IMG/VR virus record: IMGVR_UViG_2582580966_000005
From: a virus
Lineage: Duplodnaviria; Heunggongvirae; Uroviricota; Caudoviricetes
Reading direction: 5' to 3' (one strand)
DNA length: 18,833 nt
In this document: piece by piece, positions 542 through 18,833 of the stretch
How positions within the stretch are numbered: position 1 is the stretch's first letter
Layout of the letters: each line of letters starts with the position of its first letter
Translations under genes and position numbers: made by a program
Notes under the pieces: model-generated
Told to the model about the DNA's origin: nothing
Databases searched by the model: none
What the model saw: the letters and a program-made list of their open reading frames with translations, nothing else

Positions 542-544
542 CTG

Positions 545-1886: not shown

Positions 1887-1903
1887 ATTTGCCCTCCGCA
1901 GGG

Positions 1904-1922: not shown

Positions 1923-1929
1923 TCACCGT

Positions 1930-3706: not shown

Positions 3707-4180
3707 TTACGGCGTTTCTGTGGCCTTTTTAAAGCGTTTTCTGATTTCGTCCATGATCTCCTGTTCTGCCACCTGATCAAAGCCCATATACGGACGTGCG
3801 CCAATGGCCGCCGGTCCCGGTGGCATACCAGGCAGGCCACCCCACTGATGAATGGCTGCATAAGGTTCATTTGATCCAATCAGCGCCCAGGTATCGCCAT
3901 AATCCGTGGTCAGGCGGCGGGCCAGATCGCCGTTCAGCGTCAGGATTTTGCCGGGCGTGTATCCCTTACGGGTACGCCACTCACGGTAAGGATCTGACCA
4001 GTCATGCCAGCGTTCACCATCCGGCTCTTTTTCCTGCTCAAACGCCATTTCTGACGATGACAGAAGACTCGCCGCCACACTGCGGGCCAGGTCTTTTCCG
4101 CCGCCCACAAACTGAAGCCGGGCAAACACTCGCTGGAGACGCGTAACGTCAACAACGACAGCTGCATCAATGGATGACAT
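3707..4180 (-). CDS. Virion morphogenesis protein (Mu G / gp31-like), 157 aa
   Basis: ATG start with GGAGG Shine-Dalgarno; size and position between F and I match Mu G. Confidence 0.7.
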   Translation of the reverse strand: MSSIDAAVVVDVTRLQRVFARLQFVGGGKDLARSVAASLLSSSEMAFEQEKEPDGERWHDWSDPYREWRTRKGYTPGKILTLNGDLARRLTTDYGDTWALIGSNEPYAAIHQWGGLPGMPPGPAAIGARPYMGFDQVAEQEIMDEIRKRFKKATETP

Positions 4181-4301
4181 ATTGCCTCCGCATAAAGGAT
4201 GAATATAAAATAAACAGGCGGTCAGTGTACGCTTAACTGGTAAAGTCGGTGCCTGCCTCCGGGTGGATCATGTATGCGGGTTCGACCCCCGCCACTGACC
4301 G

Positions 4302-5633: not shown

Positions 5634-7215
5634 CCAGCATCCCCTTCATTTCCGCAGCAAACATGGCATCACTGAGCAGCGTCATCAGGCGGGAATCATC
5701 CATTTCACGGTAAAGGGCAGGCAGGTCTGCCAGTGCCTCCGCCAGCCCCCGCGTTCTGATGACATCAATGACCGGCTCCAGCACCGGATCGATGGCCTCC
5801 TGTAAGCGGCGGGCAGGCACCGCGTCCCCCATGTCGTCCAGTTCATCACGCGGCGTGTTTTTCGCTTCCGGCAGTCGGGCTGAAAGCGCCGTCTGTTCTG
5901 TCTTTTCCTGTTTTTCCGGTAGCGTTTCCCTGTCAGGCATGGCCGGTTCATTACTGCTCTGACGGACACGGAATATGGCTTCACCGGGCGTGGGCTGTGG
6001 AATACCGGTCTGCTCCCGTACCCAGGGATCAGGAATATCCATCCCCGCACTGAGTTGCATCACCGCACTGGCTATTTTGGTGATATCCCCCGGTTCTTTG
6101 GTCTGGAAACAGATACGCGGCAGGCGACGGATATCAATGGCGTGGGCGGTGTTCAGGGCATACAGCGGATACACCAGATCGCGGTTTAGGGTTGCAGCCA
6201 GCTGGCGTAAATCAGAATCCCTGATTTCCCGGCGCACCTCGTTATGCACCTCACCCAGCGAGCGCGCGCCTTTGTCTCCGGCTTCTGTGGTCAGCGTGCC
6301 GCCGAGTATTGCTTTGGAGATGGAACGCTCACCCCACGAAATCATGGTTTCAAACGGATCGGCCTGACCGTTCGCTGCCGCCTGAAACTCCAGCGACATC
6401 CCGGCCGGGATGATCCCGCCTGTACGTCGCCCGATATCCATCACCGCCCGCATCAGGGCACTTTTCTGCTCCGGTGTTGCCCCGGACGGGTATTTCCCGA
6501 CCTTCATTGGCAGGCCGTACACCTCCAGAAATTCCGCCAGATCGCGCACGGAATAGTTTTTGAAAATGAACGGCCAGATAAGCGTTCTGACAAGCCCCGT
6601 CGCACCACCGTAGCCGGTGCGTGAACGCGACTGATGCACTATCCAGCCAAAGGGCTGAAACGCCACCCCGGCATGGCTGCCGTCACGCAGCCGCAGTTCG
6701 CTCAAATCATCCGGGTTAAGGCAGAAATGCCCGCTGTCACGCCATCGGATGGCGCGGATGATGTGCATCTTACCGAGCATCCCGTGCTCAATCTCCATGC
6801 AGGAATAGCCCTTCAGGATGGCATCGGTGGCATCAAATAACATGGCATCAAACCAGTCGGCGGAATGCAGATATTCGTCGAGCATTTCCGCGTCCTTTTT
6901 CTCATTCGCGCTGGCGTTCGGTGGCGGCTCAATGCTCCATGGCACCCCCTGAATGGCAAGACGTCGCTTGCCCAGCTCCGCAAAAAGGTGGGTGTCCTTT
7001 TCTTCAATGTCAGCCGCCAGATCGGACTGGGCAATCAGATCGCCACGTTCAGCCCCGCGAAGGCACTGCGCCGCCCGGTTCGGGGTGATACCCGAGGCGG
7101 GATGCTCAACATAACGGCTGGCAATCTGCGGAATATCCAGCGCGGTACTTTGCATCTCCGGGTCAAAGGAGAAAGGTTTTCCGTCAAGATCAATTATGCG
7201 TCCCACTACCAGCAC
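5617..7215 (-). CDS. Portal protein (Mu gp29-like, DUF935 family), about 532 aa
   Basis: Track start at 7213..7215 is a GTG overlapping the terminase stop by 10 nt; first in-frame ATG is 20 codons further in. Large protein between terminase and F, as in Mu. Confidence 0.8.
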   Translation of the reverse strand: MLVVGRIIDLDGKPFSFDPEMQSTALDIPQIASRYVEHPASGITPNRAAQCLRGAERGDLIAQSDLAADIEEKDTHLFAELGKRRLAIQGVPWSIEPPPNASANEKKDAEMLDEYLHSADWFDAMLFDATDAILKGYSCMEIEHGMLGKMHIIRAIRWRDSGHFCLNPDDLSELRLRDGSHAGVAFQPFGWIVHQSRSRTGYGGATGLVRTLIWPFIFKNYSVRDLAEFLEVYGLPMKVGKYPSGATPEQKSALMRAVMDIGRRTGGIIPAGMSLEFQAAANGQADPFETMISWGERSISKAILGGTLTTEAGDKGARSLGEVHNEVRREIRDSDLRQLAATLNRDLVYPLYALNTAHAIDIRRLPRICFQTKEPGDITKIASAVMQLSAGMDIPDPWVREQTGIPQPTPGEAIFRVRQSSNEPAMPDRETLPEKQEKTEQTALSARLPEAKNTPRDELDDMGDAVPARRLQEAIDPVLEPVIDVIRTRGLAEALADLPALYREMDDSRLMTLLSDAMFAAEMKGMLDGSGD

Positions 7216-8870
7216 CCCCGATCAAATTCATGATATGCCTCATCGTCATCACGATAACCGCCCTCCATTGCCCGCGACCGCTCCGGCAGCGCCTGACAGG
7301 CTGATTCATCCAGGATGAAACCCTCCATGTATGACGCCCGGTTTGCCATACAGAGTGCCACGGCAAAATCACCATGGCGGCGGGCGTTCGCAGCCGTTGC
7401 GTTCTGGTCCTTCGTGCGCCCCTTGTCGATTTGCGGGATACCATTCACCACCTTCACATGGCGCAAATCATCAAGCGTGGTCTGATGGCGGGCGACGAGG
7501 ATATTCTGATCTTCAAACTCGGCTTTCAGTTTTGGCATCCACTCGCCGTACCACTTCGGCGACAACATCACGCAGTCGATGATGTCCGGGCCAAAGGCCA
7601 GCAGTGCGGCCTCTGCCAGATAGCCGCCGTTACCGGTGGCGTCGAACGCCGCACCGACCAGCGCCGGAACGCGGGTCAGGATGTACATCATCACCTGTTC
7701 CTGCTGGGCATACGGCAGGTTGCGCAGCTCCACGCGAAACACCTCGCGCTTTGCCAGGAGTTCGGTGATTTCCAGCAGCACAAAGCAGGACAGGTCACCG
7801 GTGCGGGCAAAGTCTTCCCCGAAGCTGAAGCGGGAACGGGGATTTAATTTCTCTGTAAGCGGTTTTAAATGTTCTTCACACCAGGTTAAAACTTCCGATT
7901 CACGCAGCCATGCGGCACGGCTGATGAAGTCGTCCGGGGCTTCAAACGTCAGAATCGGGATGTCACGAATCATCGCCATTTCAATAAGCGCGTGAGGAAT
8001 ATAGGCACCGCCGGATTTTTTCGGGATACAGCCGTATTCCTCGTCGGCATCCTCACGGGTCGGGGCGTTTTTGTAGAGATCATCACGCCATTTCTGCTCG
8101 CTTTCCGGTGACCATTCCTGATCGGTGACGTAACAGATACGACGGTACAGCCCGTCCGCAATGGCATCATCCAGGGTTATGCGGTGGACGCTGTAATCCT
8201 TGCGCCCCTCGCGGGCTTCCTGAATGTACTGATTAAACAGATTATCGACGCCGTTATGCGTGGAAATAATGCGCACGCGTGCGCCCCACATGGTAAGCGC
8301 CATTGCCGCCTTGAGAAGCTCATCCAGTGACTCGTGGAACGCGGCTTCATCAATCACCACATCCCCCTGAAGACCGCGCAGGTTTGACGGACGGGAAGAC
8401 AATGCCTGAATTTTGAATCCACTGTTCGGAAAGCGGATCATGTAGGTCAGAATTTCTTCTTTTTTATCCCGATCCCAGAATGTCTGCTCATACACATCAG
8501 CATCTGCCAGCTGGTTAAAGGCACGGGAGAACAGCGCGCAGGCAGAAATATATTCCAGCGCCATCTCCTGTTTTGACCCCACATAAAACACATTACGGCC
8601 ACCACGACGCTTAGGCTTTGCGGCGGTAATGACGTTACGCCCGGCTTCCGCCCAGGTAAGCCCGGTGCGTCGGGATTTCTCCGCGATGCAGACCTGACTT
8701 TCATCTGCAAACCAGCGGGCCTGATAATCCAGAAACACCGGCATATCACCGGGCAAATCAAGGCTGTCCGGCACATCCACGCCCAGCAGGGCTTTTTCAC
8801 CGGACAGATCAATTTTGCGGGGAGGTGTCATTTGTATCAGTGAAGGAGACTTTTCTTTGGCTTTGTTCAT
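7206..8870 (-). CDS. Terminase large subunit (Mu gp28-like), 554 aa
   Basis: ATG at 8868..8870, coupled to the upstream ORF. Size, position upstream of the portal, and ATPase/nuclease-type motifs (e.g. VIDEAAFHE) fit a large terminase. Confidence 0.85.
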   Translation of the reverse strand: MNKAKEKSPSLIQMTPPRKIDLSGEKALLGVDVPDSLDLPGDMPVFLDYQARWFADESQVCIAEKSRRTGLTWAEAGRNVITAAKPKRRGGRNVFYVGSKQEMALEYISACALFSRAFNQLADADVYEQTFWDRDKKEEILTYMIRFPNSGFKIQALSSRPSNLRGLQGDVVIDEAAFHESLDELLKAAMALTMWGARVRIISTHNGVDNLFNQYIQEAREGRKDYSVHRITLDDAIADGLYRRICYVTDQEWSPESEQKWRDDLYKNAPTREDADEEYGCIPKKSGGAYIPHALIEMAMIRDIPILTFEAPDDFISRAAWLRESEVLTWCEEHLKPLTEKLNPRSRFSFGEDFARTGDLSCFVLLEITELLAKREVFRVELRNLPYAQQEQVMMYILTRVPALVGAAFDATGNGGYLAEAALLAFGPDIIDCVMLSPKWYGEWMPKLKAEFEDQNILVARHQTTLDDLRHVKVVNGIPQIDKGRTKDQNATAANARRHGDFAVALCMANRASYMEGFILDESACQALPERSRAMEGGYRDDDEAYHEFDRGCW

Positions 8871-9118
8871 CAGGCTTTACCTGTCAGAATGCTTTTGATT
8901 CGGAACTCAAGCTCTTCAGTCATCACGTCCACGCCACTCAACTCATCAGTGACAGCCCCTGCCAGCAGCGAATGCAGTTGTTCCAGGGATATTTCCCCGG
9001 CAATGCTGAGTTCAGTCAACTCACGACACGCTTTTATGGTTTCAGGAGGTAACTGTGTTGCAAGACTGAATGCCTTCTGATGAGCACTGCTCATCAGTGA
9101 GCGGTTATCTGTTACCAC
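8870..9118 (-). CDS. Small protein (82 aa) sharing the C-terminal motif of the upstream gp27-like protein
   Basis: GTG start at 9116..9118 (checked by hand) with a strong AGGAGGTG Shine-Dalgarno overlapping the gp27-like stop; its stop overlaps the large terminase ATG. C-terminus AVTDELSGVDVMTEELEFRIKSILTGKA parallels AVTDELRGVDGMSEQIEFRIRQMLLGKA. Confidence 0.5.
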   Translation of the reverse strand: MVTDNRSLMSSAHQKAFSLATQLPPETIKACRELTELSIAGEISLEQLHSLLAGAVTDELSGVDVMTEELEFRIKSILTGKA

Positions 9119-9128
9119 GATTCACCTC

Positions 9129-9710
9129 CTACGCCTTACCAAGCAGCATCTGCCTGATACGGAATTCTATCTGCTCGCTCATGCCATCCACGCCGCGCAA
9201 CTCGTCGGTGACGGCGTTCGCCATCTCTTCAGCAAATGCGGCCCGGATTTCTTTTTCACGCTTAATGCTGCGCTCGGCGGCACTTTCCGCACGCTGTGCC
9301 GACAGGAGGATGTCCTTAATAAGGCGCATATCCACATCGCTGTCGCTGTTCAGGGATTCGGTGGCGGCACGCAGACGGCGGTACATCAGGGCACGGGACA
9401 TCTCCAGAATCAGTGCCGTGGTTTCACCGGTCGGCTTATCCCCCAGTTCGGCCATCATGGCTTTTGTCTGCTCGCGTAAATCACGCAGATTACGGGCAAT
9501 CAGCTCATTACGGGAGGCTTCCCGGCTGATGGCCGCCGGTGAAAGCTGCTGCTCTTCCGGCAGGCCTGCCTCACGGATCAGACGGTTGATTTCCTCGCGG
9601 ATCTGGACCTGCGTCAGGCGTTTTTCACGCAGCATTTCCAGCAGCGGCTTACGGATGCTGTCGGGGAGCAAATCCACCTTGCGTACACGGCCACGCGTCG
9701 GCTTATCCAT
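9129..9710 (-). CDS. Mu gp27-like DNA-binding protein (DUF3486 family; putative small terminase-like subunit), 193 aa
   Basis: ATG start with AAGGGGG Shine-Dalgarno. Basic N-terminus (RGRVRKVDLLPDSIRKPLLEMLREKRLTQVQIREEINRL); located two genes upstream of the large terminase. Confidence 0.6.
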   Translation of the reverse strand: MDKPTRGRVRKVDLLPDSIRKPLLEMLREKRLTQVQIREEINRLIREAGLPEEQQLSPAAISREASRNELIARNLRDLREQTKAMMAELGDKPTGETTALILEMSRALMYRRLRAATESLNSDSDVDMRLIKDILLSAQRAESAAERSIKREKEIRAAFAEEMANAVTDELRGVDGMSEQIEFRIRQMLLGKA

Positions 9711-9712
9711 CG

Positions 9713-10003
9713 TTACCCCCTTGCGCGTGGTTTCTTCACACCCGGAACAGTGGCACGACCTTCCGCCACATCCTGACCCCGGCCGGTCAGTTCAGCGATG
9801 AAATAACCGTTAACAAGCGTGCGCTTACGCACCAGTCCCTGCTCAGCAAGCCAGGCAATGTGGGTGTGAACGGTGTCGCGGGACACGCGGTGGCCGTAAT
9901 CATCCAGGCAGTCCTGAAGCACGGATTCGCCCAGTTCGCCGTTGTAATCCGCCAGCGACCGCAGAATGACAAGACGCTGATCTTCAGTAATGAAATCACT
10001 CAT
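9713..10003 (-). CDS. Hypothetical protein (96 aa), Mu gp26 position; possible winged-helix fold
   Basis: ATG start with AAGGA Shine-Dalgarno; overlaps the upstream gene by 8 nt. Confidence 0.5.
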   Translation of the reverse strand: MSDFITEDQRLVILRSLADYNGELGESVLQDCLDDYGHRVSRDTVHTHIAWLAEQGLVRKRTLVNGYFIAELTGRGQDVAEGRATVPGVKKPRARG

Positions 10004-10307
10004 TGTGTTTTTTCCTTACAGCCTGCTCCAGCAGCAGTTCGTTCTGATGAGAGACGGATTTCAGGGTGGCGTTGGTGGCCTTTAGCTCACCGCGCAGGGT
10101 GGTGATTTCGATATTGAGTCTGTTCACCTCCTGCTGCGTGGGCAGGCCGGAAATCCGGCTCTCCACCCGCTCAACCCGATCGGAGAGTTTTTCAAAGGCC
10201 TCGCGGGGGACGAAGGTTTTGCGCATCAGCGCCATGAAGATCCCCCCGGCCGTGGCCGTTGCCGACAGGATCGGCACAACATAATCTTTAACGATGCTGA
10301 CCCACAT
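9996..10307 (-). CDS. Small membrane protein with N-terminal TM helix and coiled-coil C-terminus (103 aa); Mu gp25/DUF2730-like, possible releasin
   Basis: ATG start with GGAGG Shine-Dalgarno. TM segment VVPILSATATAGGIFMALM. Sits after the spanins as in the Mu lysis cassette. The releasin assignment is inferred from position and architecture. Confidence 0.45.
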   Translation of the reverse strand: MWVSIVKDYVVPILSATATAGGIFMALMRKTFVPREAFEKLSDRVERVESRISGLPTQQEVNRLNIEITTLRGELKATNATLKSVSHQNELLLEQAVRKKHNE

Positions 10308-10515
10308 GACCGGCCTCCATGATGTTCTGGCAGTTCACACAACGGATGGCATCCGGCACGGCAACCAGACGGGCAGCCGGAATGTCACCCCCGCAGTCCG
10401 CGCATACACGCCTGCCCGGTGTCTCCGCCACCCGGCGCTTACGTGTCAGCCGGTCACAAAGGGCGCGTTCTGTTGCCCGCTCCATGACAGCCTGAGCACA
10501 ATCTGAATCATCCAT
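10288..10515 (-). CDS. TraR/DksA-family C4 zinc-finger protein (75 aa)
   Basis: ATG at 10513..10515 with AAGGAAAAAGG Shine-Dalgarno, 10 nt after the o-spanin stop; the track start at 10581 has a poorly placed Shine-Dalgarno. Two CxxC pairs (CADCGG ... CVNCQ) at the spacing typical of TraR/DksA. Confidence 0.7.
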   Translation of the reverse strand: MDDSDCAQAVMERATERALCDRLTRKRRVAETPGRRVCADCGGDIPAARLVAVPDAIRCVNCQNIMEAGHVGQHR

Positions 10516-10525
10516 ACCTTTTTCC

Positions 10526-10897
10526 TTACTTCGTCTTTCCTGCCGGAACAGCAGGCGTTCCGGCCATATCAGTAAATTCATGTTGTCGCCGCGCCTCCAG
10601 ACGACGAATACTGGCCTTGTCCACGTTGCAGTTCTTGATCACCGCCAGCAGTTGCAGGTTGTAAGTGACCGATGCCCCAAACGTGAACGGCTCCGGCGCA
10701 GGAGGGACCAGGCAGTCAGCCAGCCATTCAGCGGGGATCGGAACCGGCTGCACAGGCACGTATTTCACAGACGGCCCGGCGCACCCGCTCAGCCACATCA
10801 TCAGGCACAGGAACAGAGGCCGCAGGCACTGTTGCCAGCGACCGGCGGACAACGCTCTGCTGCTCCTCGCTGTGCTGAATGTTCTGTTGCTTTTCAT
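10526..10897 (-). CDS. Putative o-spanin (outer-membrane lipoprotein, Rz1-like), overlapping the i-spanin; start uncertain
   Basis: Lipobox-like LSGC with an upstream hydrophobic stretch (RPLFLCLMMWLSGCAGP), followed by a proline-rich mature region. ATG at 10895..10897 is the most upstream ATG before the lipobox, giving an unusually long signal region. Confidence 0.5.
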   Translation of the reverse strand: MKSNRTFSTARSSRALSAGRWQQCLRPLFLCLMMWLSGCAGPSVKYVPVQPVPIPAEWLADCLVPPAPEPFTFGASVTYNLQLLAVIKNCNVDKASIRRLEARRQHEFTDMAGTPAVPAGKTK

Positions 10898-11249
10898 TCG
10901 TGGCCGCCTTGCTGATTTGTGAAATGAGTTGCAGGGTGCGTTGCTGGTTTGCCAGCACCAGACGGGCTTCGTCCCGTTCACGCACAAGCACATGATTATT
11001 GTCCTCAAGGCGCTGCGTCTTCTGGTGCATTCCCCATACCACGGCAGCCAGCACGCTCATCCCCCCCAGCGCCGCCATACAGCCTCCGGCAATCAGGGCC
11101 GGTAAGGGATTGTTCACCGCAGCCACAGCACACCCCGCAGCAGCACAACGGCACACAGCAGCGCAATCATGAGCGGTCGCCAGAAGCGGTTCAGACTTTC
11201 GGCAAATCGTAACGACATAACCATTCATCCGCCGAACGGCGGGCCTCAA
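10728..11249 (-). CDS. Putative i-spanin (inner-membrane spanin, Rz-like); start uncertain
   Basis: Track start at 11249 is a TTG; an in-frame ATG lies at 11226..11228. Predicted TM segment LPALIAGGCMAALGGMSVLAAVVWGM, then a coiled-coil-like QKTQRLEDNNHVLVRERDEARLVLANQQRTLQLISQ. Overlaps the endolysin 3-prime end and contains the o-spanin in another frame. Confidence 0.5.
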   Translation of the reverse strand: MRPAVRRMNGYVVTICRKSEPLLATAHDCAAVCRCAAAGCAVAAVNNPLPALIAGGCMAALGGMSVLAAVVWGMHQKTQRLEDNNHVLVRERDEARLVLANQQRTLQLISQISKAATNEKQQNIQHSEEQQSVVRRSLATVPAASVPVPDDVAERVRRAVCEIRACAAGSDPR

Positions 11250-11691
11250 GACCGGGGAGTTTTACCCCCTTTGAATAAATCCAGCGGATATACTGCTTAC
11301 AGGACGCGGGCATCTGCCCGGCATTGATAAGGCGCAGGAGCGTGGAGTTGCGAAAGTTCGTTTCACCGGCCCAGAAAATCCAGGAGGCCAGCGCCACCGT
11401 CTGACCACGGGTAAGCGGCACCTGAACATGACGATCGATAGCCGCAAAGGCCCATTTCATGTCCTTTTCCAGCAGCTCCAGACACTCTTCATCAGTTTTT
11501 GTCATCCCCGGTTTCACATCCGGGCCGGTATGGCCGTAACAGATGGTGGGGGTGCCGGTGGGATCAATGTACGTGGTGTTTTCTTTCCCTTCCCAGTAGC
11601 CGGTGTAGTGCGTGGCAATAGTGAACGTCCCGGCTCCGGCCAGAACAAGGGCAATCAGCTTTTTACGCAGTGGCGCGGGGAGTTTTGGCAT
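11191..11691 (-). CDS. lys: SAR endolysin (glycoside hydrolase family 24 phage lysozyme with N-terminal signal-anchor-release domain), 166 aa
   Basis: ATG start. N-terminal weakly hydrophobic Gly/Ala-rich segment LIALVLAGAGTFTIATHY, followed by the catalytic spacing E-x8-D-x5-T in WEGKENTTYIDPTGTPT. Confidence 0.8.
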   Translation of the reverse strand: MPKLPAPLRKKLIALVLAGAGTFTIATHYTGYWEGKENTTYIDPTGTPTICYGHTGPDVKPGMTKTDEECLELLEKDMKWAFAAIDRHVQVPLTRGQTVALASWIFWAGETNFRNSTLLRLINAGQMPASCKQYIRWIYSKGVKLPGLEARRSADEWLCRYDLPKV

Positions 11692-11762
11692 TGTTACGCT
11701 GTCTCATGGTGTTCTCTGAGCCAGCGTAACCGTGGAAAAAAGGGGGCAGGATTTGCGGAATA
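11692..11762 (-). promoter_or_regulatory. Candidate activator-dependent late promoter region upstream of the endolysin gene
   Basis: 71-bp non-coding gap between the activator gene and the first lysis gene; in Mu the lys promoter sits in the equivalent place. No clear sigma-70 -35/-10 was identified. Confidence 0.3.
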
Positions 11763-12185
11763 TCAGAAAAGCCGGGGCTGCGTGCGCTCCTGATGCAGGC
11801 GACGCTGGTTGCGGATAACGGAGTAAATCTGCGTCTCTGACATCTGGTAATGGCGGCGCAGGGGTTCAATTTTTTCACCCTGGCTCCAGCGGGAAAAAAT
11901 CTCATTATTGCGCAGTTCGGTGAAAAGGGATTCACCGACCGGGAGATAATAACCACGCCCGCCCATGTACCCGGCCTGTGCGGCCGCAACCTTACGGGCA
12001 AGCATTCCCGCCTGAGCAGATTCAATCCCCTGACGGTGCAGTTCAGCACTGATCACATCAACCAGGTCACGCAGCGTGCCGGGCCAGTTCTTTTTCAGCT
12101 CATCATCAGGAATATCATCCAGACGGTCAATCAGCGCGTGCAGCTGTTCGCTGTCACCAAACATGCTCATCTGTGTTTCAGCCAT
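11763..12185 (-). CDS. mor: Mor/C-family transcriptional activator (140 aa)
   Basis: ATG start with GGAGG Shine-Dalgarno. Motifs typical of the Mor/C family as I recall them: N-terminal MFGDSEQLHALIDRL, GRGYYLP, and a C-terminal HTH-like QMSETQIYSVIRNQRRL. It is the only Mor/C-type gene in the window, so it could equally be the C-type late activator. Confidence 0.75.
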   Translation of the reverse strand: MAETQMSMFGDSEQLHALIDRLDDIPDDELKKNWPGTLRDLVDVISAELHRQGIESAQAGMLARKVAAAQAGYMGGRGYYLPVGESLFTELRNNEIFSRWSQGEKIEPLRRHYQMSETQIYSVIRNQRRLHQERTQPRLF

Positions 12186-12216
12186 CCCCGCCTCCGGTCA
12201 CCATTACACAGGGCAA

Positions 12217-12252
12217 GTTTAAAATAAAAATCCCGCGCTGTGGCGGGATTTG
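12217..12252 (-). terminator. Rho-independent terminator for minus-strand transcripts, between gemA and the Mor/C-like gene
   Basis: Read on the minus strand: AAATCCCGC-cacagc-GCGGGATTT (9-bp stem, 6-nt loop) followed by TTATTTTAAA. Plus-strand arms are 12228..12236 and 12243..12251. Confidence 0.6.
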
Positions 12253-12255
12253 GGG

Positions 12256-12765
12256 TTAAAAAGGGGAGGATTCTTCATACAGCCTGCAAACGCGCTCATA
12301 ACTCATCACTGTACGCACTGACATCCCCAGCACATCCAGCATCTTGCGACGGTGCCAGCGTTTGAGACACTCCAGCACATCCGAGGCCAGTGCGGGGTGT
12401 TGCTCCAGCCACTGCCAGTTAGCCACACCTTCGCCACCGTTCTGCGCGGCCGTCTGCGACTTCACCCAGCGGTTAAGGGCCGTTTCCCCGCCATCAGCGA
12501 TAAAGCCCTGCCGGTGCATTACCTTCCAGATGGCGCGAATTTTGGCGGTCACCGTACCCGGTTTTAAGGCCCGGTTAACCGGTTTCTGACGCACTTTAAA
12601 ACCGCGTTTTTTGAAAACATCCAGCACGCGGGATAACTCATCCGGTGACATATCCCGGCAACTGGATTTGCCGGTGGCTGCCAGCAGAACGAATGTATAG
12701 GTTTCATCATCCAGGGCAAGCTCGCGCTTTGCCACATGAATGGCGGATATCAGTTTCCCTCTCAT
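12256..12765 (-). CDS. gemA: GemA-like regulatory protein (Mu gp16 / DUF1018 family), 169 aa
   Basis: ATG start. N-terminal LISAIHVAKRELALDDETYTFVLLAATGKSSCRDMSPDELSRVLDVFKKRGF matches my recollection of the GemA family; sits immediately upstream of the Mor/C-like gene as in Mu. Confidence 0.75.
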   Translation of the reverse strand: MRGKLISAIHVAKRELALDDETYTFVLLAATGKSSCRDMSPDELSRVLDVFKKRGFKVRQKPVNRALKPGTVTAKIRAIWKVMHRQGFIADGGETALNRWVKSQTAAQNGGEGVANWQWLEQHPALASDVLECLKRWHRRKMLDVLGMSVRTVMSYERVCRLYEESSPF

Positions 12766-13058
12766 GCTGTATCAACACTCCTGCTGATATGATAGATATT
12801 ATTTTCCCGATCGAGCTGAACCCGATACTCCGGAGGAATCACAAAAATATTAAAACCATCAACAGTTTTTATTCTTGAGTAGTATTCCCCCTTATGATAT
12901 CTGGCAAGTGCATTAATCAGAGAAGCCGCCGCCAGCCCAATCAGGTATTTTTTATGAAAAATACTGATAACTTTCCGGCACAGCCATCGTGTAATGACGA
13001 ATGCACCGAAAAACGATGTGATATATAAACACCAGAACAACTGCGAACTACTGTCCAT
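12762..13058 (-). CDS. Small membrane protein (98 aa, one N-terminal TM helix)
   Basis: ATG start with AAGGAG Shine-Dalgarno; stop overlaps the gemA start (ATGA). TM segment LFWCLYITSFFGAFVITRWLC. Very AT-rich (about 27% G+C on one sampled line). Confidence 0.5.
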   Translation of the reverse strand: MDSSSQLFWCLYITSFFGAFVITRWLCRKVISIFHKKYLIGLAAASLINALARYHKGEYYSRIKTVDGFNIFVIPPEYRVQLDRENNIYHISRSVDTA

Positions 13059-13245
13059 TATCTTTCTCCTTATTCAGTCTTCTGCGGCATTCGGCACAGT
13101 CATCAGGGCTTTCAAATGTATCCGGCTCGCGATTATGAGCCAGATATAACCACCGCCCACATATACTGATATTTTCACCTGTTTTAAAAAAATGATGCTT
13201 CTTAGCCATCAATGGCCGCGCCCATCCAGCGGGTAGACTATTCAT
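13048..13245 (-). CDS. Small Cys/His-containing protein (65 aa), possible zinc-binding
   Basis: ATG start with GGAGGA Shine-Dalgarno; overlaps both neighbours. Cys and His residues spaced as ...HHFF...C...H...CAEC...; zinc binding is a guess. Confidence 0.45.
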   Translation of the reverse strand: MNSLPAGWARPLMAKKHHFFKTGENISICGRWLYLAHNREPDTFESPDDCAECRRRLNKEKDNGQ

Positions 13246-13612
13246 TAGCTTTATCCTCCATGCTGGACAGAATCATATGTATTAATGTCGGGCGTGGAGA
13301 TATACGCATTTCATTAAGCGTCTGAAGGGCAGCAACAGCAGCCATTTTATCGGTGCCTCTGGCAATTTCTGCAAGAGAATGCACAATCCATAACGGACTT
13401 AACGCTACGGCTGAATCCAGAATCATGTCATCCATAATAATTTCTGGCACATCCCGTTTGTCACATTCTTTATCCATAAAAGAAACGATTTTTTCCGCAT
13501 CTTCCGGTTTCATACCTCCGGCGATAAGAATTTTACGATATTCATAAGACGTTCTTAATTCAATGCTCATATTCATCTCCTGTAACTCTGACAAGGACGT
13601 GATTTTTCTCAT
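13238..13612 (-). CDS. Hypothetical soluble protein (124 aa) in the AT-rich island
   Basis: ATG start with GGGAGG Shine-Dalgarno, coupled to the upstream gene. Manual counts on lines within this gene give about 37-42% G+C. Confidence 0.5.
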   Translation of the reverse strand: MRKITSLSELQEMNMSIELRTSYEYRKILIAGGMKPEDAEKIVSFMDKECDKRDVPEIIMDDMILDSAVALSPLWIVHSLAEIARGTDKMAAVAALQTLNEMRISPRPTLIHMILSSMEDKANE

Positions 13613-13794
13613 TTACGCCTCCCGGAAATACGAATGTATATACCGATGAGAAAATCCATAATAAACAGGAAGAGCGACATCCTGATAAAGAACCAAATGT
13701 CAGGCATAATGGACAGGTTTCCTGTAATCGCAAATATAAAACCAGTCCCCCACACTGGAACGATAATTGCGAAAAATACAAGTCTCTTTATCAT
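13609..13794 (-). CDS. Small hydrophobic membrane protein (61 aa, two predicted TM helices)
   Basis: ATG start with GGGAG Shine-Dalgarno; ATGA overlap at both ends. Hydrophobic stretches LVFFAIIVPVWGTGFIFAITG and IWFFIRMSLFLFIMDFLIGIYI. AT-rich. Confidence 0.45.
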   Translation of the reverse strand: MIKRLVFFAIIVPVWGTGFIFAITGNLSIMPDIWFFIRMSLFLFIMDFLIGIYIRISGRRK

Positions 13795-14342
13795 GGCGTT
13801 AACTCCCGTAATACAGCGTCCTCGGCGGTCCGTCGACGGTAATAAACAGCGTGAGCAGAATGTTCAGATATGCCAAACTTTTCGCCAATTTCCCGGAATG
13901 ACAGACGGCGAGGGTAATCGGAATCCCGTAGTGCACGTATAAGACGAACATCCTCATCAGATATACGTGTGCCGGGGCGTAACTCACCGCACTTTGTTAA
14001 TCCGGCACCAATCATTCCTGCGCGGCACCTGACAGAGTCTTTATTACGTCCGAGATAATCCCCCATTTGCTGGCAGGTCATTGTCCGGGCATTTTTTCGG
14101 ATAAATTTATCTTCATCAGGTGTAAATCGCGGTCGTTTATATTTCAGCAACTCCGGGTATGTACTGCGCAATACGCCAGTCCGGTTATATACGGCCCAGA
14201 CACTTCTTTTTATTCTGGCGGCAATATCCTTAACCGGGGTGGAGGAATAAAGCGCAATCAGCAGCGCATCTTCTTCAGGTGTCCACGGGCGGACATGAGC
14301 AGGTGCACGACCTTTTCGCCCCATGGGTTGTAATTTCATCAT
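13791..14342 (-). CDS. Putative DNA-binding protein with Myb/SANT-like repeats and a C-terminal HTH (183 aa)
   Basis: ATG start with AGGGGGTGA Shine-Dalgarno. Repeats WTPEEDALLIALYSSTPVKDIAARIKRSVWAVYNRTG and FTPDEDKFIRKNARTMTCQQMGDYLGRNKDSVRCRAG resemble Myb/SANT helices; the C-terminal LSFREIGEKFGISEHSAHAVYY looks like an HTH. G+C is lower than the backbone. Confidence 0.55.
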   Translation of the reverse strand: MMKLQPMGRKGRAPAHVRPWTPEEDALLIALYSSTPVKDIAARIKRSVWAVYNRTGVLRSTYPELLKYKRPRFTPDEDKFIRKNARTMTCQQMGDYLGRNKDSVRCRAGMIGAGLTKCGELRPGTRISDEDVRLIRALRDSDYPRRLSFREIGEKFGISEHSAHAVYYRRRTAEDAVLRELTP

Positions 14343-14345
14343 GCA

Positions 14346-14861
14346 TCACCCCCTGACTCGCTTTTCAGCAGCATAAAACTCATCAGACAGAATTTCGGTC
14401 ATTTTCTGATTTGCGGGTTTTACACCGCACTGAAGATAAATCACATCGTCAACGCAGAACCACTCCACAGGGCCATACAGGATTGCTGAGAAATCAATGC
14501 CCAGCCAGAACAACAGGGCATCGGTTCTGGCATACGTGACGGGCGAATATTCACGCCACAGACTGTTCAGTTCGTCAGAGGCAGTGCGCAGGGCTTTGGG
14601 AATGCGCGATGTGCGCGGCGTGCAGCTCCAGCCATTCGACGCAGTCGGTTTTCGCCATAAATCACGATGAAAAGGATATTTGTCATTCGTAAAACGCAGC
14701 CCCTTAAAACAAAAACCGCTGATACCGGATACAAATACCGACCGGCACTCAACATTCAGCACGGCCTCAAGGCGTTTTGCCTCATCCTTAACTTGCTGGC
14801 AGTCCTGCTGATATTTTTGCCACGCAGCCAGCGCGGAAGGGTTCGATGTTTTAAAGAACAT
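14346..14861 (-). CDS. Hypothetical protein (171 aa), variable early region
   Basis: ATG start with GGAGGTG Shine-Dalgarno, overlapping the upstream stop. No family recognised. Confidence 0.5.
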   Translation of the reverse strand: MFFKTSNPSALAAWQKYQQDCQQVKDEAKRLEAVLNVECRSVFVSGISGFCFKGLRFTNDKYPFHRDLWRKPTASNGWSCTPRTSRIPKALRTASDELNSLWREYSPVTYARTDALLFWLGIDFSAILYGPVEWFCVDDVIYLQCGVKPANQKMTEILSDEFYAAEKRVRG

Positions 14862-15394
14862 TACGCCACCTCCGCAGATATCCCGGCAGGCGCTGCCGTC
14901 CGGTCAACAATCAGGTAACGCAGAACATGTTCGGTGATATTCCAGCCGCTTAAACCGCAGATAATGGTCCCCAGGCGAATGTCGATATACGCCATCACAA
15001 ACTGGGGCACACCTTCTTTCATTGCCTGCTCATCAACTTCAGCCACCACATAAACGGTTTCACAGGTCAGAACGCCCTGCGCAAATTCCCACGCCATCGA
15101 CGGAATATCATGCCCTTCAACCCACGGCAGGGATTTTCTGAAGCTGCACCACTGAACATCATCAGCCACAGACTCCTGGCGGCATTTGCGACGAACCGGC
15201 TGTACCGGGCGGGGACGCGGAATATCATAAAAACCGTTACATTCTGTCAGCACACCGGCATCAACCGCATCACGCAGAAAATAGACCATCGAGGATGGCG
15301 GCATATTCATTCTTTGAGCCAGAACGCCGCAGGTCAGACGCCCGTAAATGCTCAGCCAGTTTTTAACCCCTTCAAGCACTTTTGCATCTATCAT
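14861..15394 (-). CDS. Hypothetical protein (177 aa), variable early region
   Basis: ATG start with GGAGGA Shine-Dalgarno; stop overlaps the next ATG (TAATG). No family recognised. Confidence 0.5.
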   Translation of the reverse strand: MIDAKVLEGVKNWLSIYGRLTCGVLAQRMNMPPSSMVYFLRDAVDAGVLTECNGFYDIPRPRPVQPVRRKCRQESVADDVQWCSFRKSLPWVEGHDIPSMAWEFAQGVLTCETVYVVAEVDEQAMKEGVPQFVMAYIDIRLGTIICGLSGWNITEHVLRYLIVDRTAAPAGISAEVA

Positions 15395-15397
15395 GAA

Positions 15398-15940
15398 TTA
15401 TTCCTCCGTCAGCGCCACATATTCAGAATGTTTAATTTCCTGACATTCTTCAGGAATACGCCCGTTTATTTCCCTGCCATAAGCACCTACTTTAAACACC
15501 ACGCACAGGGCATCACGGGAGAGAGACGGGGTCCACCAGGAGTCTGTGTTAAACATGGAGGGCATTCTCATTACCCCCAGCTTTTCACAGAGCCAGACAA
15601 GGAAATCAGGTCGCTTTCTTAAATCGCGTTCAGCGGCTTCAACCATTGTGGCAATCGCCGGTCCTTCAGGGCATGACTCATCAGGTCTGGCTATAAAGCA
15701 CTGTCCGCTACCGATAAAAGCCACATCATCGCGCTTACGCCAGCCCGCAGGCAGAGCACCGGCAAAATAAAACTCACTGATTCTGTCCATGGCGAACGGC
15801 TTTAAGCGCAATCCGGCAGCGCCTGTATTTTTCAGTAACGTCCGAAGAATACTGTTGCGTAGCGGTAAAACAGTCTGTTGATATTTGGTGAAATATTTAT
15901 TTGTCTGTGCTCTGTCTAATTTGAAATAAAAATATGCCAT
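15398..15940 (-). CDS. Hypothetical protein (180 aa), variable early region
   Basis: ATG start with AAGGAACAGGA Shine-Dalgarno; first gene after a 97-bp gap downstream of gam; stop lies 3 nt from the next start. No family recognised. Confidence 0.5.
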   Translation of the reverse strand: MAYFYFKLDRAQTNKYFTKYQQTVLPLRNSILRTLLKNTGAAGLRLKPFAMDRISEFYFAGALPAGWRKRDDVAFIGSGQCFIARPDESCPEGPAIATMVEAAERDLRKRPDFLVWLCEKLGVMRMPSMFNTDSWWTPSLSRDALCVVFKVGAYGREINGRIPEECQEIKHSEYVALTEE

Positions 15941-16037
15941 ATTTCCTGTTCCTTATTTTCAGTTTACAGGCGCAAGCAGCCCTCTGACGCGAGCGCCATA
16001 ATTAAAACAATGTGATATCTAAAGATTTAATGCGGTG

Positions 16038-16568
16038 TTATTTATTCAGTCCGGCGTCCTGTTCAAAAGGCTCGACAGAAAAACTTTCAGCGCCTTTATT
16101 CACCTTAATACCGGCAATACCCTTTACCGCATCCGGTTCCGCCAGAATGGCTTGCTTATTCACTTCCTCTTTCGTGCGGATGAAACGCTCAAGCCCCATA
16201 CGGCGCAGCATTTCAATCACACCTTCCACATCACGGCTGACGCTGCATGATGGCTTTTCCAGCCGCCATGACACCGTTCCGGTTGTCAGATTGGCAGTTT
16301 TGGTTTCGCCACCGTTCGTCAGCTCATCGCGGTTGGTTTTGCACCAGTCATGAATCCCCTTAAAAAGCACTTTGATTTCTTTTTTAAGGTTTTCAATCTG
16401 CGGCGTATAACGGGCGGTGATTTCTGCCACTTCATCATTCATTGCCGTTTCCAGGCGCAGCGCCTCTCGCTGCATATCCCCAAAGCGACGGATATCGCGA
16501 CTGACTTCTTCCCGGGTCTGCGGTGCCGCCTCGGCTGCGGCCTTTAATTTTGTAACGCGTTTAGCCAT
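16038..16568 (-). CDS. gam: Gam-like host-nuclease inhibitor (Mu Gam / Ku-like DNA end-binding family), 176 aa
   Basis: ATG start with AAGGA Shine-Dalgarno. Size and motifs (RLETAMNDEVAEI, RDELTNGGETKTANLTTGTVSWR, RFIRTKEEVNK) fit the Mu Gam family as I remember it; located between B and GemA as in Mu. Confidence 0.8.
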   Translation of the reverse strand: MAKRVTKLKAAAEAAPQTREEVSRDIRRFGDMQREALRLETAMNDEVAEITARYTPQIENLKKEIKVLFKGIHDWCKTNRDELTNGGETKTANLTTGTVSWRLEKPSCSVSRDVEGVIEMLRRMGLERFIRTKEEVNKQAILAEPDAVKGIAGIKVNKGAESFSVEPFEQDAGLNK

Positions 16569-16579
16569 TTTGTTTTTCC

Positions 16580-16873
16580 TTATTGCAGTGTGCCTGATGC
16601 TTTATGCACGCGGTGGCGTTTAATGATGGCATCCGCCCCAAAAGCCTGTACAGATGCCTGAAATTCCGCTGAGAGAAACTGAATAATTGCAGGACTGTGA
16701 TACTGGAGAATACTTGCATAAACGTCACAGAGTGACGTCGGGCTGTTATCCGTATCACGTTCTGTTTTCACATCCACTCCAATCTTTTCATGCACTTCAA
16801 CACAGTCATTGCCTGCCAACTTTTCGTCATGCGAAACATGATTAAATTCAAAAATAACGCGTACTTTGCTCAT
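16580..16873 (-). CDS. Hypothetical small protein (97 aa), second of a diverged tandem pair
   Basis: Track ORF starts at 16900, but the ATG at 16871..16873 has an AGGGG Shine-Dalgarno and gives the N-terminus MSKVRVIFEFNHVSH, parallel to the upstream paralog. Confidence 0.5.
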   Translation of the reverse strand: MSKVRVIFEFNHVSHDEKLAGNDCVEVHEKIGVDVKTERDTDNSPTSLCDVYASILQYHSPAIIQFLSAEFQASVQAFGADAIIKRHRVHKASGTLQ

Positions 16874-16877
16874 GGAA

Positions 16878-17150
16878 TTACCCCTGCTGATTAAATTCAT
16901 TACCTTTAATAACCCCGGAACGCATGCTCATATCTTTCATGAGCGCACTGGCTTTCATTGCCACAAGTTCAGCAAAGTCTCTGCTTTCCGCGAGCATAAC
17001 CACCCCAAAAATCATGGCGGGTCCATCACCTTTCTGCTTTATCCCGGTTGAACGTATGTCCAGACTTACCCCCATGCGCACTGTTCCATCAGGGTTTTTA
17101 TGGATAACGTGCTCCTTGTATTCGAAAATAATGCGTACGACTTTACTCAT
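16878..17150 (-). CDS. Hypothetical small protein (90 aa), first of a diverged tandem pair
   Basis: ATG at 17148..17150 with GAGGA Shine-Dalgarno. N-terminus MSKVVRIIFEYKEHV closely matches the next gene. Confidence 0.5.
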   Translation of the reverse strand: MSKVVRIIFEYKEHVIHKNPDGTVRMGVSLDIRSTGIKQKGDGPAMIFGVVMLAESRDFAELVAMKASALMKDMSMRSGVIKGNEFNQQG

Positions 17151-17696: not shown

Positions 17697-17918
17697 TTAG
17701 CTGACTTGTTTCGCACCAACAGAACGGCATATTCCGCTGTAAACGTCTGTCGCACCTTTGCGATCAAGTCCGGCAGATATCACCATTCGTGTGCGGTCAT
17801 TAAATTCAAAAAGTAAATCGCCACATTCTTTATTTTCGGCCAGTGAAATCACCTTCACGTTATCGAAATTAACCAGGTAAAAGCGTCCGTAAATATCAGG
17901 AATATTAAATACCGCCAT
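17697..17918 (-). CDS. Small early protein in the position of Mu kil (about 73 aa); function not established
   Basis: Track ORF starts at a GTG at 17924; the ATG two codons in (17916..17918) has an AGGTG Shine-Dalgarno 5 nt upstream and overlaps the B stop codon. Assignment is by position and size only. Confidence 0.4.
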   Translation of the reverse strand: MAVFNIPDIYGRFYLVNFDNVKVISLAENKECGDLLFEFNDRTRMVISAGLDRKGATDVYSGICRSVGAKQVS

Positions 17919-17920
17919 AA

Positions 17921-18833
17921 TCACACCTGTGAGAGTAATTCAGGGTTGGTATAAACCTCTTTAAAGGCCGCATTAATATGTTTTTCTGTCAGCGCCGCGC
18001 CTTCACCGCTGGCGGTGAGCCACGCCTGGTTAAGCGTATGTGTCAGAACGCGTAACGCTCCCGGTTTTTCAGCGATAGCCTGCATGACGGCCAGCTCGGC
18101 CTCACCACTGATACCCCATGCCCTGGCAATGGCCAGCACATCCGCCTTTTTAGCCTTGCGAAGTTGTTTTGTACGGGCAAGACGACTGAACAGGCGCGAT
18201 AAGTCATCAACGGCGCGGCGTCCACCCTTAAACAGTCCGCGCGGGTTACCAATAAGCACCATCCCGATCCCCGTGGCGTCCTGGATTGCACGCAGTTGTT
18301 CCAGACCGTCAATACCCAGATGATCCGCCTCATCCACAATCACCAGTCCACGCGTTCCCGTCAGGCGACGGCGGATGGCGCGGGATAACGCCCCCTTGTT
18401 CGCGCGGGTGTAATCAATCCCCAGCGCATCGGCCAGCTCCAGCAGACCCTCCGTGACGCTGGAGTGCGCGGGTGACAGGGTGATCATCCAGGTGTTTGGT
18501 TGCTCCTGGCAGTAATTACGGGCGGTGGCCGTTTTACCCACACCCGGTACGCCCACAATGACGTTAATACAGCCCATCAGGCGAACCGCCTGAAACAGTG
18601 CGCGCAGCTCCTGGACTGTCTGCGTTTCCACAAACTGCGGCGGTTCCGGCAGTGCGCTTTGTTTATTCCAGTTCTCATACCAGGAACGCAGGGAAGCAGC
18701 CACAGCGGCGTTATCGCCTTTATATTTCCCCTTGCGGAAAGCCGATAATGTGCCGTCGAAAATCCCCGCCTCTCTGGCGATGGCATACTGCGTCAGTACG
18801 CCGCCATCAATAAGTTCATCAATGGTCTTGATT
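17921..18833 (-). CDS. B: MuB-like transposition ATPase (AAA+), partial: N-terminus lies beyond the window end
   Basis: Frame is open to the window edge. My translation of 18704..18832 gives IKTIDELIDGGVLTQYAIAREAGIFDGTLSAFRKGKYKGDNAAVAAS (HTH domain), followed by the Walker A motif GVPGVGKT and Walker B LVIVDEADHL in the track ORF. The M at 18703 in the track is an internal GTG. Stop at 17921 overlaps the next gene. Confidence 0.8.
   Translation of the reverse strand, partial: IKTIDELIDGGVLTQYAIAREAGIFDGTLSAFRKGKYKGDNAAVAASLRSWYENWNKQSALPEPPQFVETQTVQELRALFQAVRLMGCINVIVGVPGVGKTATARNYCQEQPNTWMITLSPAHSSVTEGLLELADALGIDYTRANKGALSRAIRRRLTGTRGLVIVDEADHLGIDGLEQLRAIQDATGIGMVLIGNPRGLFKGGRRAVDDLSRLFSRLARTKQLRKAKKADVLAIARAWGISGEAELAVMQAIAEKPGALRVLTHTLNQAWLTASGEGAALTEKHINAAFKEVYTNPELLSQV

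Follow-up and report, generated by a model that had tools for sequence, protein, structure and literature searches.

What a group of four small, AT-rich genes represents in the early operon of a Mu-like prophage is the question raised by positions 12762-13794 of IMG/VR record IMGVR_UViG_2582580966_000005, a stretch of DNA of 18,833 nucleotides that was analysed as a whole and is referred to below as the window. The genes are called orf61, orf110, orf65 and orf98 after the length of their products in residues and lie, all on the minus strand, between a gene for a Myb/SANT-like protein and gemA. They had been taken, in a reading made from the sequence alone, for a single cargo cassette. Comparison of the interval among related prophages points to another answer: the four genes are probably the current filling of a recombination hot spot, made up of independent early-lytic accessory genes that do not form one system. 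The parts of this answer differ in strength. Independence of the accessory modules is very likely, early-lytic expression is quite likely by analogy with Mu, and there is an even chance that two or more of the genes have a role of the kind seen in host takeover, anti-defence or exclusion. The feature would then be a typical variable accessory slot of a transposable phage and not a new four-gene defence or toxin module. In gene order, the four members are:

13609-13794, minus strand: orf61, 61 residues, an open reading frame (ORF) in ATGA overlap with the stop of the Myb-like gene
13238-13570, minus strand: orf110, 110 residues, PHROG 1988, its start placed where homologues start (the ORF of 124 residues spans 13238-13612)
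13048-13245, minus strand: orf65, 65 residues, PHROG 2358
12762-13058, minus strand: orf98, 98 residues, PHROG 17269

The window holds an Sp18-type Mu-like prophage of Escherichia coli; strain FORC_069 and several other human isolates are 100% identical to it in the region of interest. The window is oriented from the late end to the early end, hence the location of the genes on the minus strand, where they follow each other in the order B-like ATPase, gam, gp11 homologue, gp12 homologue, Myb-like gene, orf61, orf110, orf65, orf98, gemA, mor and lysozyme. The four genes are therefore embedded in the early operon, between the transposition genes and the middle/late regulators, and are co-directional with it. 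The assignment to a Mu-type phage, already made from the letters alone, is supported by Pfam matches to Gam, Gp11_C and GemA and by the 47-67% identity of four proteins to Mu Gam, gp11, gp12 and GemA.

The evidence that carries our conclusion comes from the content of the interval in relatives. The Myb-to-gemA interval was found in 232 of 5426 complete E. coli genomes (about 4%), many of them Shiga-toxin-producing. Ten E. coli variants were read and their proteins clustered (11 E. coli loci in all), and a survey of IMG/VR anchored on GemA yielded 29 complete slots, or 40 slots when the E. coli loci are included. At least ten gene arrangements are present between the Myb-like gene and gemA in these 40 slots, and the flanks are conserved. 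The following arrangements, listed from the Myb-like gene towards gemA, were among those observed (F2, F6, F9 and F10 designate alternative genes of the slot):

F2, gp14-like gene, reverse-strand F9: 8 IMG/VR slots
orf61, orf110, orf65, orf98 allele a: 7 IMG/VR slots
orf61, orf110, orf65, orf98 allele b: 4 IMG/VR slots
F2, F6, orf110, reverse-strand DUF2513 gene: 4 IMG/VR slots
F2, F6, orf110, orf65, orf98 (either allele): 3 IMG/VR slots
F2, orf98 allele b: 2 IMG/VR slots
F2, F6, orf110: 1 IMG/VR slot
orf61, F10, F2, F6, orf110, orf65, orf98: E. coli locus L006
F2, F6, orf98: E. coli locus L010

The genes thus assort separately. orf110 is present without orf65 and orf98 at loci L011, L027, L028, L039, L041 and L055, orf98 is present without orf110 and orf65 at loci L010, L012, L013, L031 and L053, and the presence or absence of orf61 is independent of the other three genes. 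The latter was observed in 3 of the 11 E. coli slot variants and in 11 of the 29 IMG/VR slots, its place being taken elsewhere by F2 alone or by F2 and F6. With orf61, orf110 and orf98 each occurring without the others, and at least ten arrangements in 40 slots, the notion of one four-gene cassette is not supported. The same applies to the argument that small membrane proteins accompanied by a zinc-binding partner are the sign of one module, as the genes assort independently and relatives of orf65 are found elsewhere without the other three. The hypervariable position had been placed between gam and gemA. Its location just upstream of gemA is correct, but its extent is narrower: the gp11 and gp12 homologues are conserved, so that the slot runs from the Myb-like gene to gemA and does not cover the entire gam-gemA interval. 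Junctions of exchange are located at gene starts. The first 7-8 nt after the stop codon of the Myb-like gene are common to orf61 and F2, and upstream of orf110 the sequences become similar from its ribosome-binding site onwards. A low G+C (guanine plus cytosine fraction; 0.39-0.44) likewise characterises the alternative fillings of the slot, with the exception of F2 (about 0.50).

Some relatives carry a reverse-strand gene immediately upstream of gemA, encoding either a DUF2513 protein of 136 residues (L011, 1810-2220, minus strand) or a protein of 79 residues (L014/L015, 1587-1826, minus strand). G+C-rich hairpin-like sequences lie beside these genes, and the 5' end of gemA differs there (MNRASL...). 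The reverse-strand DUF2513 and F9 genes look more like prophage-expressed cargo, or true morons, than orf61, orf110, orf65 and orf98 do.

The base composition of the region was computed over the complete window, since the sequence-only reading had described the four genes as an AT-rich stretch foreign to the phage backbone. Positions 12762-13794 have a G+C of 0.409, which ranks first from the bottom among 17,801 sliding windows of 1033 nt (mean 0.539, standard deviation 0.044), and the stretch is indeed compositionally foreign; windows of 300 nt within it range from 0.39 to 0.45. The contrast holds with respect to the late region (1-12500; 0.52-0.63) and had been overstated with respect to the immediate early neighbours: the adjoining early region (13800-17000) is itself at 0.40-0.54, so that the difference from it is real but smaller than the difference from the late genes. 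The individual values of orf61, orf110, orf65 and orf98 are 0.39, 0.40, 0.45 and 0.40 for G+C, versus 0.55 for gemA, and 0.47, 0.38, 0.41 and 0.40 for G+C at third codon positions, versus 0.62 for gemA.

All four genes are labelled as hypothetical proteins in RefSeq, and each exact protein sequence is present on 611-728 contigs, every time under that name. The description of four co-directional, translationally coupled small genes preceded by Shine-Dalgarno sequences was found to be accurate. Overlaps are seen between the Myb-like gene and orf61 (4 nt, ATGA), orf110 and orf65 (8 nt), orf65 and orf98 (11 nt) and orf98 and gemA (4 nt, ATGA), and the Shine-Dalgarno sequences, located 6-9 nt upstream of the starts, are in gene order GGGAG (spacer of 8 nt), AGGAG (6 nt), GGAGG (9 nt) and AAGGAG (7 nt). 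A gap of 38 nt separates orf61 from orf110 if the latter is taken as 13238-13570. The sizes proposed earlier, 61-124 residues, are retained for the products of 61, 65 and 98 residues and revised for that of 124 residues, which most likely has 110 and starts at Met15. Pairwise ratios of nonsynonymous to synonymous substitution rates (dN/dS) among relatives were 0.13-0.33 for orf61, 0.06-0.19 for orf110 and 0.05-0.08 for orf65, compared to 0.06-0.24 for gemA. For orf98 the ratio was 0.13-0.19 between two alleles, the values within an allele (4-10 differences) being uninformative. On this substitution pattern the four are identified as real genes under purifying selection, with dN/dS of 0.05-0.33 wherever the number of differences suffices, similar to gemA.

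Searches for recognisable families confirmed that none of the four can be assigned to one of described function. Pfam and NCBIfam gave no match of note for any of the four proteins and PADLOC gave none at E<=1, so that membership in a defence-type family, as had been envisaged, finds no support from any PADLOC model. The three PHROG matches (1988, 2358 and 17269) are all to families of unknown function, and no exclusion-protein annotation was obtained from Pfam or PHROG. Searches of the PDB with the four proteins, by sequence and by profile, returned nothing below E=0.04, and fold searches with the AlphaFold2 models of orf65 and orf110 returned noise only. The four proteins display no similarity to Mu early proteins (best BLASTP E=0.057), and a literature search returned no paper on these proteins or on the function of PHROG 2358 members.

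The product of orf65 is a basic protein with three Cys and three His residues. It matches PHROG 2358 (E=4.7e-34, positions 4-67 of a profile of 146), a family whose function is not described. Seven sequences were compared, originating from the Mu-like prophage, Salmonella, Scandinavium, a Klebsiella phage, Pbunavirus 14-1 (gp85), Cedarrivervirus Sf11 (gp34) and Wifcevirus ECML-117 (gp14). Columns G7, W8, P11, H18, F20, S27, C29, C50 and C53 are invariant down to 35% identity, and H17 is not conserved. The protein is probably a mini-domain with a single zinc site formed by the His-Cys3 set H18, C29, C50 and C53, the binding of zinc being what we infer from these conserved residues. An AlphaFold2 model obtained with 17 sequences displays a strand-strand-strand-helix order and is too weak to trust (predicted local distance difference test score, pLDDT, of 58.8). 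The pattern G-W...P...H.F...S.C...C..C is shared with the PHROG 2358 members 14-1 gp85 (ORF85), Sf11 gp34 and ECML-117 gp14, whose carriers differ from the prophage studied here in being virulent phages.

The distribution of orf65 is broad. A total of 271 phage records match, 229 of which are Pseudomonas phages, Pbunavirus included, and in phage 14-1 the gp85 gene lies in an array of small genes. Further carriers are found in Wifcevirus, Cedarrivervirus, a Klebsiella phage, where the gene stands beside DNA methyltransferase genes, and a Pantoea phage; in Sf11 the relative is located between a KorB-like regulator and a DNA polymerase gene. The commonest context outside Mu-like phages, in IMG/VR and in genomes, is a lambdoid prophage in which the gene directly follows an O-like gene, lambda P and DUF1627, with Hok/Gef further on, and the second is an island with a tyrosine recombinase. 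No relative of orf61, orf110 or orf98 was detected in any of the orf65 contexts outside this lineage, whether lambdoid, integrase-island or virulent-phage. A recurrent neighbour of orf65 was sought as a functional clue and the idea was dropped, as the neighbours differ among lambdoid prophages, integrase islands and virulent phages. The lambdoid run (L077-L105, for instance L085, 4570-4782) consists of the O-like gene (DnaT domain), lambda P, DUF1627, the orf65-like gene, genes for proteins of 103 and 187 residues, both uncharacterised, and Hok/Gef. The ECML-117 gp14 protein (L022, 1486-1935) combines the orf65-type domain with an additional C-terminal part of about 85 residues that has no Pfam match, and it is this type of extension that accounts for the length of the PHROG 2358 profile (146 positions).

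The start of orf110 was reconsidered. Its homologues all have 102-111 residues and begin with MSIELR or MMSIELR, the Prokaryotic Genome Annotation Pipeline (PGAP) and the PHROG profile start at the same place, and an AGGAG sequence precedes Met15 of the 124-residue ORF by 6 nt, so that orf110 most likely corresponds to 13238-13570 and encodes 110 residues. The 124-residue form (to 13612) is probably not the product; its 14 extra codons exist only where orf61 is located upstream. The protein is acidic (isoelectric point of 4.9) and soluble, and residues 15-123 of the ORF match positions 1-105 of the 106 of PHROG 1988 (E=1.9e-43), whose function is not described. It is a rare family: an exhaustive HMMER search of 1.84 billion representative proteins produced 8 matches, including four fragments, its own cluster representative and one secreted repeat protein (short motif only). 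A relative with 47% identity (P0037) is located between gp13 and gp14 in close relatives of Mu, and SfMu and the Yersinia vB_YpM phages carry relatives at 34-36% identity. The AlphaFold2 model (12 sequences, pLDDT of 64.8) consists of six helices and is too weak to trust; its fold search gave no match. The family is confined to this slot of Mu-group phages and is helical as far as the model can be followed.

Two of the four proteins had been considered as small membrane proteins, a prediction that hydropathy supports for orf61, with its two segments, and more weakly for orf98, with one short segment. The orf61 protein is hydrophobic throughout, with two helix-length segments joined by a short loop (Kyte-Doolittle maximum of 2.38 over 19 residues), and its ends are basic (K3 and R4; R55, R59, R60 and K61; isoelectric point of 11.5). 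It is predicted to be a two-helix hairpin peptide of the inner membrane with a putative N-in/C-in topology. No match was found in Pfam, PHROG, NCBIfam or PADLOC. The orf98 protein has a single hydrophobic stretch of 17 residues (residues 7-23, Kyte-Doolittle 1.85), preceded by an acidic residue and followed by R24, R28, K29, K36 and K37, a pattern that would fit an N-out/C-in anchor whose C-terminal part lies in the cytoplasm. The idea of a lipoprotein or Sec signal was discarded for this protein, as it has neither a basic n-region nor a lipobox. Both genes are confined to this E. coli/Shigella prophage lineage, with no phage match outside it.

The orf98 protein matches PHROG 17269 over its entire length (E=8.5e-66, profile positions 1-98 of 98), a family whose function is not described. 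Its two alleles share 27 of the 30 N-terminal residues and 22 of the 68 in the remainder, a C-terminal part of about 70 residues with approximately 32% identity. At the DNA level the alleles are 45-50% identical inside orf98, whereas the adjacent gemA is again at 85-98%. Each allele was observed with either kind of upstream gene set. The alleles are at saturation of synonymous sites (dS of about 2 or more) even though their 30 N-terminal residues are nearly identical, which points to either an old dimorphism or the replacement of a domain within one gene.

Signals of expression were sought between 11600 and 16700. A consensus scan found 7 promoter-like sites, with 7.1 expected, and 7 terminator-like sites, with 5.6 expected, none of which brackets any of the four genes. 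These sites occur at chance level and so give no indication of expression specific to the lysogen, which functions in exclusion, abortive infection or toxin-antitoxin systems would require. Scans of the stretch for Rfam families, tRNA and repeats found no family, no tRNA and no notable repeat. Transcription from Pe in Mu yields a single long transcript that extends from ner to C and crosses a semi-essential region whose genes are described as largely uncharacterised; in Mu lysogens Pe is repressed apart from low-level transcription, and a back-up promoter has been reported (PMC3820752).

The preferred reading can be summarized as a mechanism. A hot spot in the early (Pe-type) operon, extending from the Myb-like gene to gemA, would currently be filled by four separate genes, each of which would enter and leave singly through exchange at short shared sequences around gene starts. 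The four proteins would most likely be synthesized at the same time as Gam and the transposition functions, immediately upon induction or infection, and be at most leaky in the lysogen, because the genes are co-directional with the early operon, are coupled to it and have no promoter of their own that could be seen. Each small protein would act alone by binding one target. Those of orf61 and orf98 may act at the inner membrane, where they would block or modulate a membrane protein, for instance one required for the entry of DNA of competing phages. The product of orf65 would be a zinc-stabilised mini-fold that binds a cytoplasmic target common to Enterobacteria and Pseudomonas, a range that is proposed because virulent phages of both host groups carry orf65. 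Finally, the orf110 protein may be a helical binder specific to Mu-group phages.

A number of points weigh against this reading. Within this lineage orf65 is always flanked by orf110 and orf98 (14 of 14 IMG/VR slots and 5 of 5 E. coli loci), which leaves room for a local functional link among the three, and the sample of slots is small and biased towards clonal Shiga-toxin-producing lineages. Consensus promoter scans are weak evidence of absence, as AT-rich DNA may hold promoters that they miss, and the low-level transcription from Pe in Mu lysogens (PMC3820752) makes lysogen phenotypes conceivable. The topology of orf98 derives from a single hydrophobic segment of 17 residues together with the positive-inside rule, both structure models score low (pLDDT of 58.8 and 64.8), and no homologue of the four has a described function.

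Four alternatives to independent accessory genes of this kind were weighed, in addition to the possibility that some of the frames are not genes. One or more of the proteins, most likely those of orf65 or orf110, might inhibit a host anti-phage system early in lytic growth, which we consider somewhat unlikely. The genes belong to an early operon and lie downstream of gam, a known nuclease inhibitor; they are small, AT-rich and patchily distributed, and orf65 relatives are present in the early regions of virulent phages and beside the DNA methyltransferase genes of the Klebsiella phage. However, neither the PDB nor the fold searches returned a structural or sequence match to anything, and an inhibitor conserved as broadly as orf65, in phages of Pseudomonas and of enterobacteria, would need a target that is itself very widespread.

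Lysogenic conversion is unlikely. It would have the products of orf61, orf98 or both made in the lysogen, where they would act at the inner membrane like prophage Sie proteins and keep out superinfecting phages. This would be consistent with their predicted membrane location, with the two diverged C-terminal alleles of orf98, which fit the recognition of a variable partner, with the residual Pe transcription and back-up promoter of Mu lysogens (PMC3820752) and with the exclusion of other phages by the early gene 10 of phage Fc02 when it is expressed (PMC9936078). The genes are nevertheless located inside a repressed early operon, on its strand and without a promoter signal, and no similarity to a known exclusion family was found in Pfam or PHROGs. 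Moreover, the cargo of lysogen type that does occur in this slot (DUF2513, F9) is encoded on the reverse strand with hairpins, and the four genes are unlike it.

It is less probable still that the proteins are internal helpers by which the phage tunes its own transposition-replication or gene regulation, for example through a DNA-binding zinc protein. The lambdoid relatives of orf65 directly follow replication genes (O-like, P and DUF1627), the Sf11 relative lies between the KorB-like regulator and the DNA polymerase gene, orf110 is restricted to Mu-group phages and always found in this slot, and the neighbouring Myb-like gene, gemA and mor are all regulators. Against such a role, the genes appear dispensable, to judge from their absence in close relatives, Mu is devoid of all four, and no DNA-binding domain was detected with Pfam.

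A single multi-gene module of the toxin-antitoxin, abortive infection or superinfection exclusion type, in which membrane effectors are paired with a Cys/His or soluble partner, is improbable to a high degree. Tight packing and translational coupling, the two predicted membrane proteins and the constant position of orf65 between orf110 and orf98 in this lineage would fit it. However, the neighbouring early genes are all packed alike, so that coupling is not specific to these four; orf61, orf110 and orf98 are each found without the others in close relatives; and relatives of orf65 and orf110 exist in other phages without the remaining genes. The lack of any PADLOC, Pfam or NCBIfam match, and of a promoter or terminator above chance, also argues against a module. 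The possibility that some ORFs, above all the one of 61 codons, are chance reading frames in AT-rich filler, as the very short length of orf61 and its lack of a PHROG or other family could suggest, is virtually eliminated by the substitution pattern (dN/dS of 0.13-0.33 with dS up to 0.58 for orf61, and lower dN/dS for the other three), in agreement with the Shine-Dalgarno sites, the stop-start overlaps, the length kept in all relatives and the RefSeq annotation.

The reading of the four genes as separate occupants of a hot spot places them among known features of transposable phages. The slot is of the same kind as the semi-essential region of Mu and the regions of genomic plasticity of Pseudomonas Mu-like phages. 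In Mu, gp13 (E14), gp14 (E15) and Mu_54, upstream of gemA, occupy the same position in the operon, from the gp12 homologue to gemA, and like the four genes they are short, lie close together, have a G+C below that of the phage and have no assigned function. In other relatives a gp14-like gene and an orf110-like gene are found in this position, and Mu gp13 is also small and Cys-rich. Homology between orf65 and Mu gp13 was considered on the latter account and dropped, as the two share no BLAST similarity. Mu differs in that the four proteins are without similarity to its early proteins and in that it does not have the extra conserved Myb-like gene ahead of the slot. In Mu-like phages of Pseudomonas aeruginosa, accessory ORFs of 34-100 codons occupy constant sites, for the most part in the left (early) arm, and coincide with G+C lows; some are phage-specific and others are shared in a patchy manner (Cazares et al. 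2014; PMC4378225). The P. aeruginosa regions differ by their host and phage lineage and by their unrelated proteins, some of which are known (anti-CRISPRs), whereas none is known here.

Two further types of gene were compared, and the resemblance is partial in both cases. The classical lambdoid moron, as defined by Hendrix and colleagues, has a deviant composition and a patchy presence, carries a promoter and a terminator of its own and is expressed in the prophage state. Deviant composition (0.409 versus 0.539) and presence/absence polymorphism are common to the four genes, which differ in being embedded in an operon with no promoter or terminator of their own above chance. T4 Imm and Sp are exclusion proteins expressed early. 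Together with gene 10/olg1 of Fc02/Ps56, they represent small proteins, some of them membrane-bound, that are made from early transcripts and exclude other phages. The Fc02 gene 10 belongs to the early operon of a Pseudomonas Mu-like phage, next to ner (PMC9936078). The exclusion proteins differ from the four in having no sequence relation to them; exclusion by orf61 or orf98 is a guess, and the Fc02 gene stands beside ner and not beside gemA.

All four genes were already known to public databases as hypothetical proteins, three of them to the PHROGs, and the kind of feature is well known. The slot map, the corrected start of orf110, the His-Cys3 set and broad range of orf65 and the two-allele structure of orf98 are new. 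The practical value of the locus is that it supplies a few single genes worth entering into functional screens. The best is orf65, whose product of 65 residues has the invariant His-Cys3 set and occurs in hundreds of phages, virulent and temperate, of Pseudomonas and Enterobacteria; the second is orf98, with its conserved anchored N-terminus and the two alleles of the remainder. Should it be true that orf65 or orf98 inhibits a host system, the result would matter broadly, both to the study of phage-host conflict and to strains used in phage therapy (Pbunavirus). A more far-reaching proposal, which we hold to be doubtful, is that orf65 encodes a pan-phage inhibitor that depends on zinc, is carried by temperate (Mu-like, lambdoid) as well as virulent (Pbunavirus, Wifcevirus, Cedarrivervirus) phages and acts on a host factor or defence system conserved between Pseudomonas and Enterobacteria. 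The two deeply diverged C-terminal alleles of orf98 would reflect an arms race against a membrane-associated target that varies, for instance the machinery by which competing phages enter, and the slot could serve as a source of new single-gene counter-defence or exclusion factors.

The genes that surround the slot in the window are listed below in the order of transcription:

16038-16568, minus strand: Gam, 57% identity to Mu Gam (Pfam, BLASTP against Mu)
14861-15394, minus strand: gp11 homologue, 67% identity to Mu gp11
14346-14861, minus strand: gp12 homologue, 53% identity to Mu gp12
13791-14342, minus strand: Myb/SANT-like helix-turn-helix gene, 183 residues, left boundary of the slot (PHROG 323, E=2.5e-53, 'D5-like transcriptional regulator')
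12256-12765, minus strand: gemA (Mu gp16 family), right boundary of the slot (Pfam GemA, E=3.6e-29; 47% identity to Mu GemA)
11763-12185, minus strand: Mor, followed by a lysozyme gene

The Myb/SANT-like gene, whose Pfam Myb and helix-turn-helix matches are below the gathering cut-off, was found in every relative that was examined, whereas Mu has no such gene at this position. Two alleles of it occur (71-75% and 95-100% identity), which diverge mainly in the 3' half, where DNA identity is 53-75%. Judged by eye, only the N-terminal Myb/SANT motif of the protein resembles Mu gp9 (E8).

In the late region, RefSeq annotates a 'tRNA-OTHER' at about 4221-4300 on the plus strand in FORC_069, between a virion-morphogenesis gene (3707-4180) and a head-morphogenesis gene (4302-5633). 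ARAGORN detected no tRNA or tmRNA in the whole window, and Rfam no family at gathering score at about 4221-4300.

The early region displays additional G+C lows at 15751-16050 (0.40), 16651-16950 (0.42) and 17701-18000 (0.43), which may be more accessory slots. The first covers the 97 nt (15941-16037) that separate gam from the following gene, together with the start of the latter, which encodes 180 residues (PHROG 2260). This gene has no counterpart in Mu itself, and a gene for 182 residues is found at the same place, between gam and gp11, in a close relative of Mu (L016).

The gap of 70 nt between the stop of gemA (12256) and the start of mor (12185) contains a strong terminator-like hairpin on the minus strand (12228-12251), with a stem of 9 bp including 5 G-C pairs and followed by a T-run. 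Six relatives retain this hairpin almost without change, even in cases of divergence at the gemA 3' end and the mor start, and a stretch of 73 nt that includes it has a folding energy of -26.2 kcal/mol (z = -2.1). Mu differs in that its gemA and mor genes overlap, with no such hairpin annotated there. The hairpin suggests that the early transcript in this lineage ends or is attenuated before mor.

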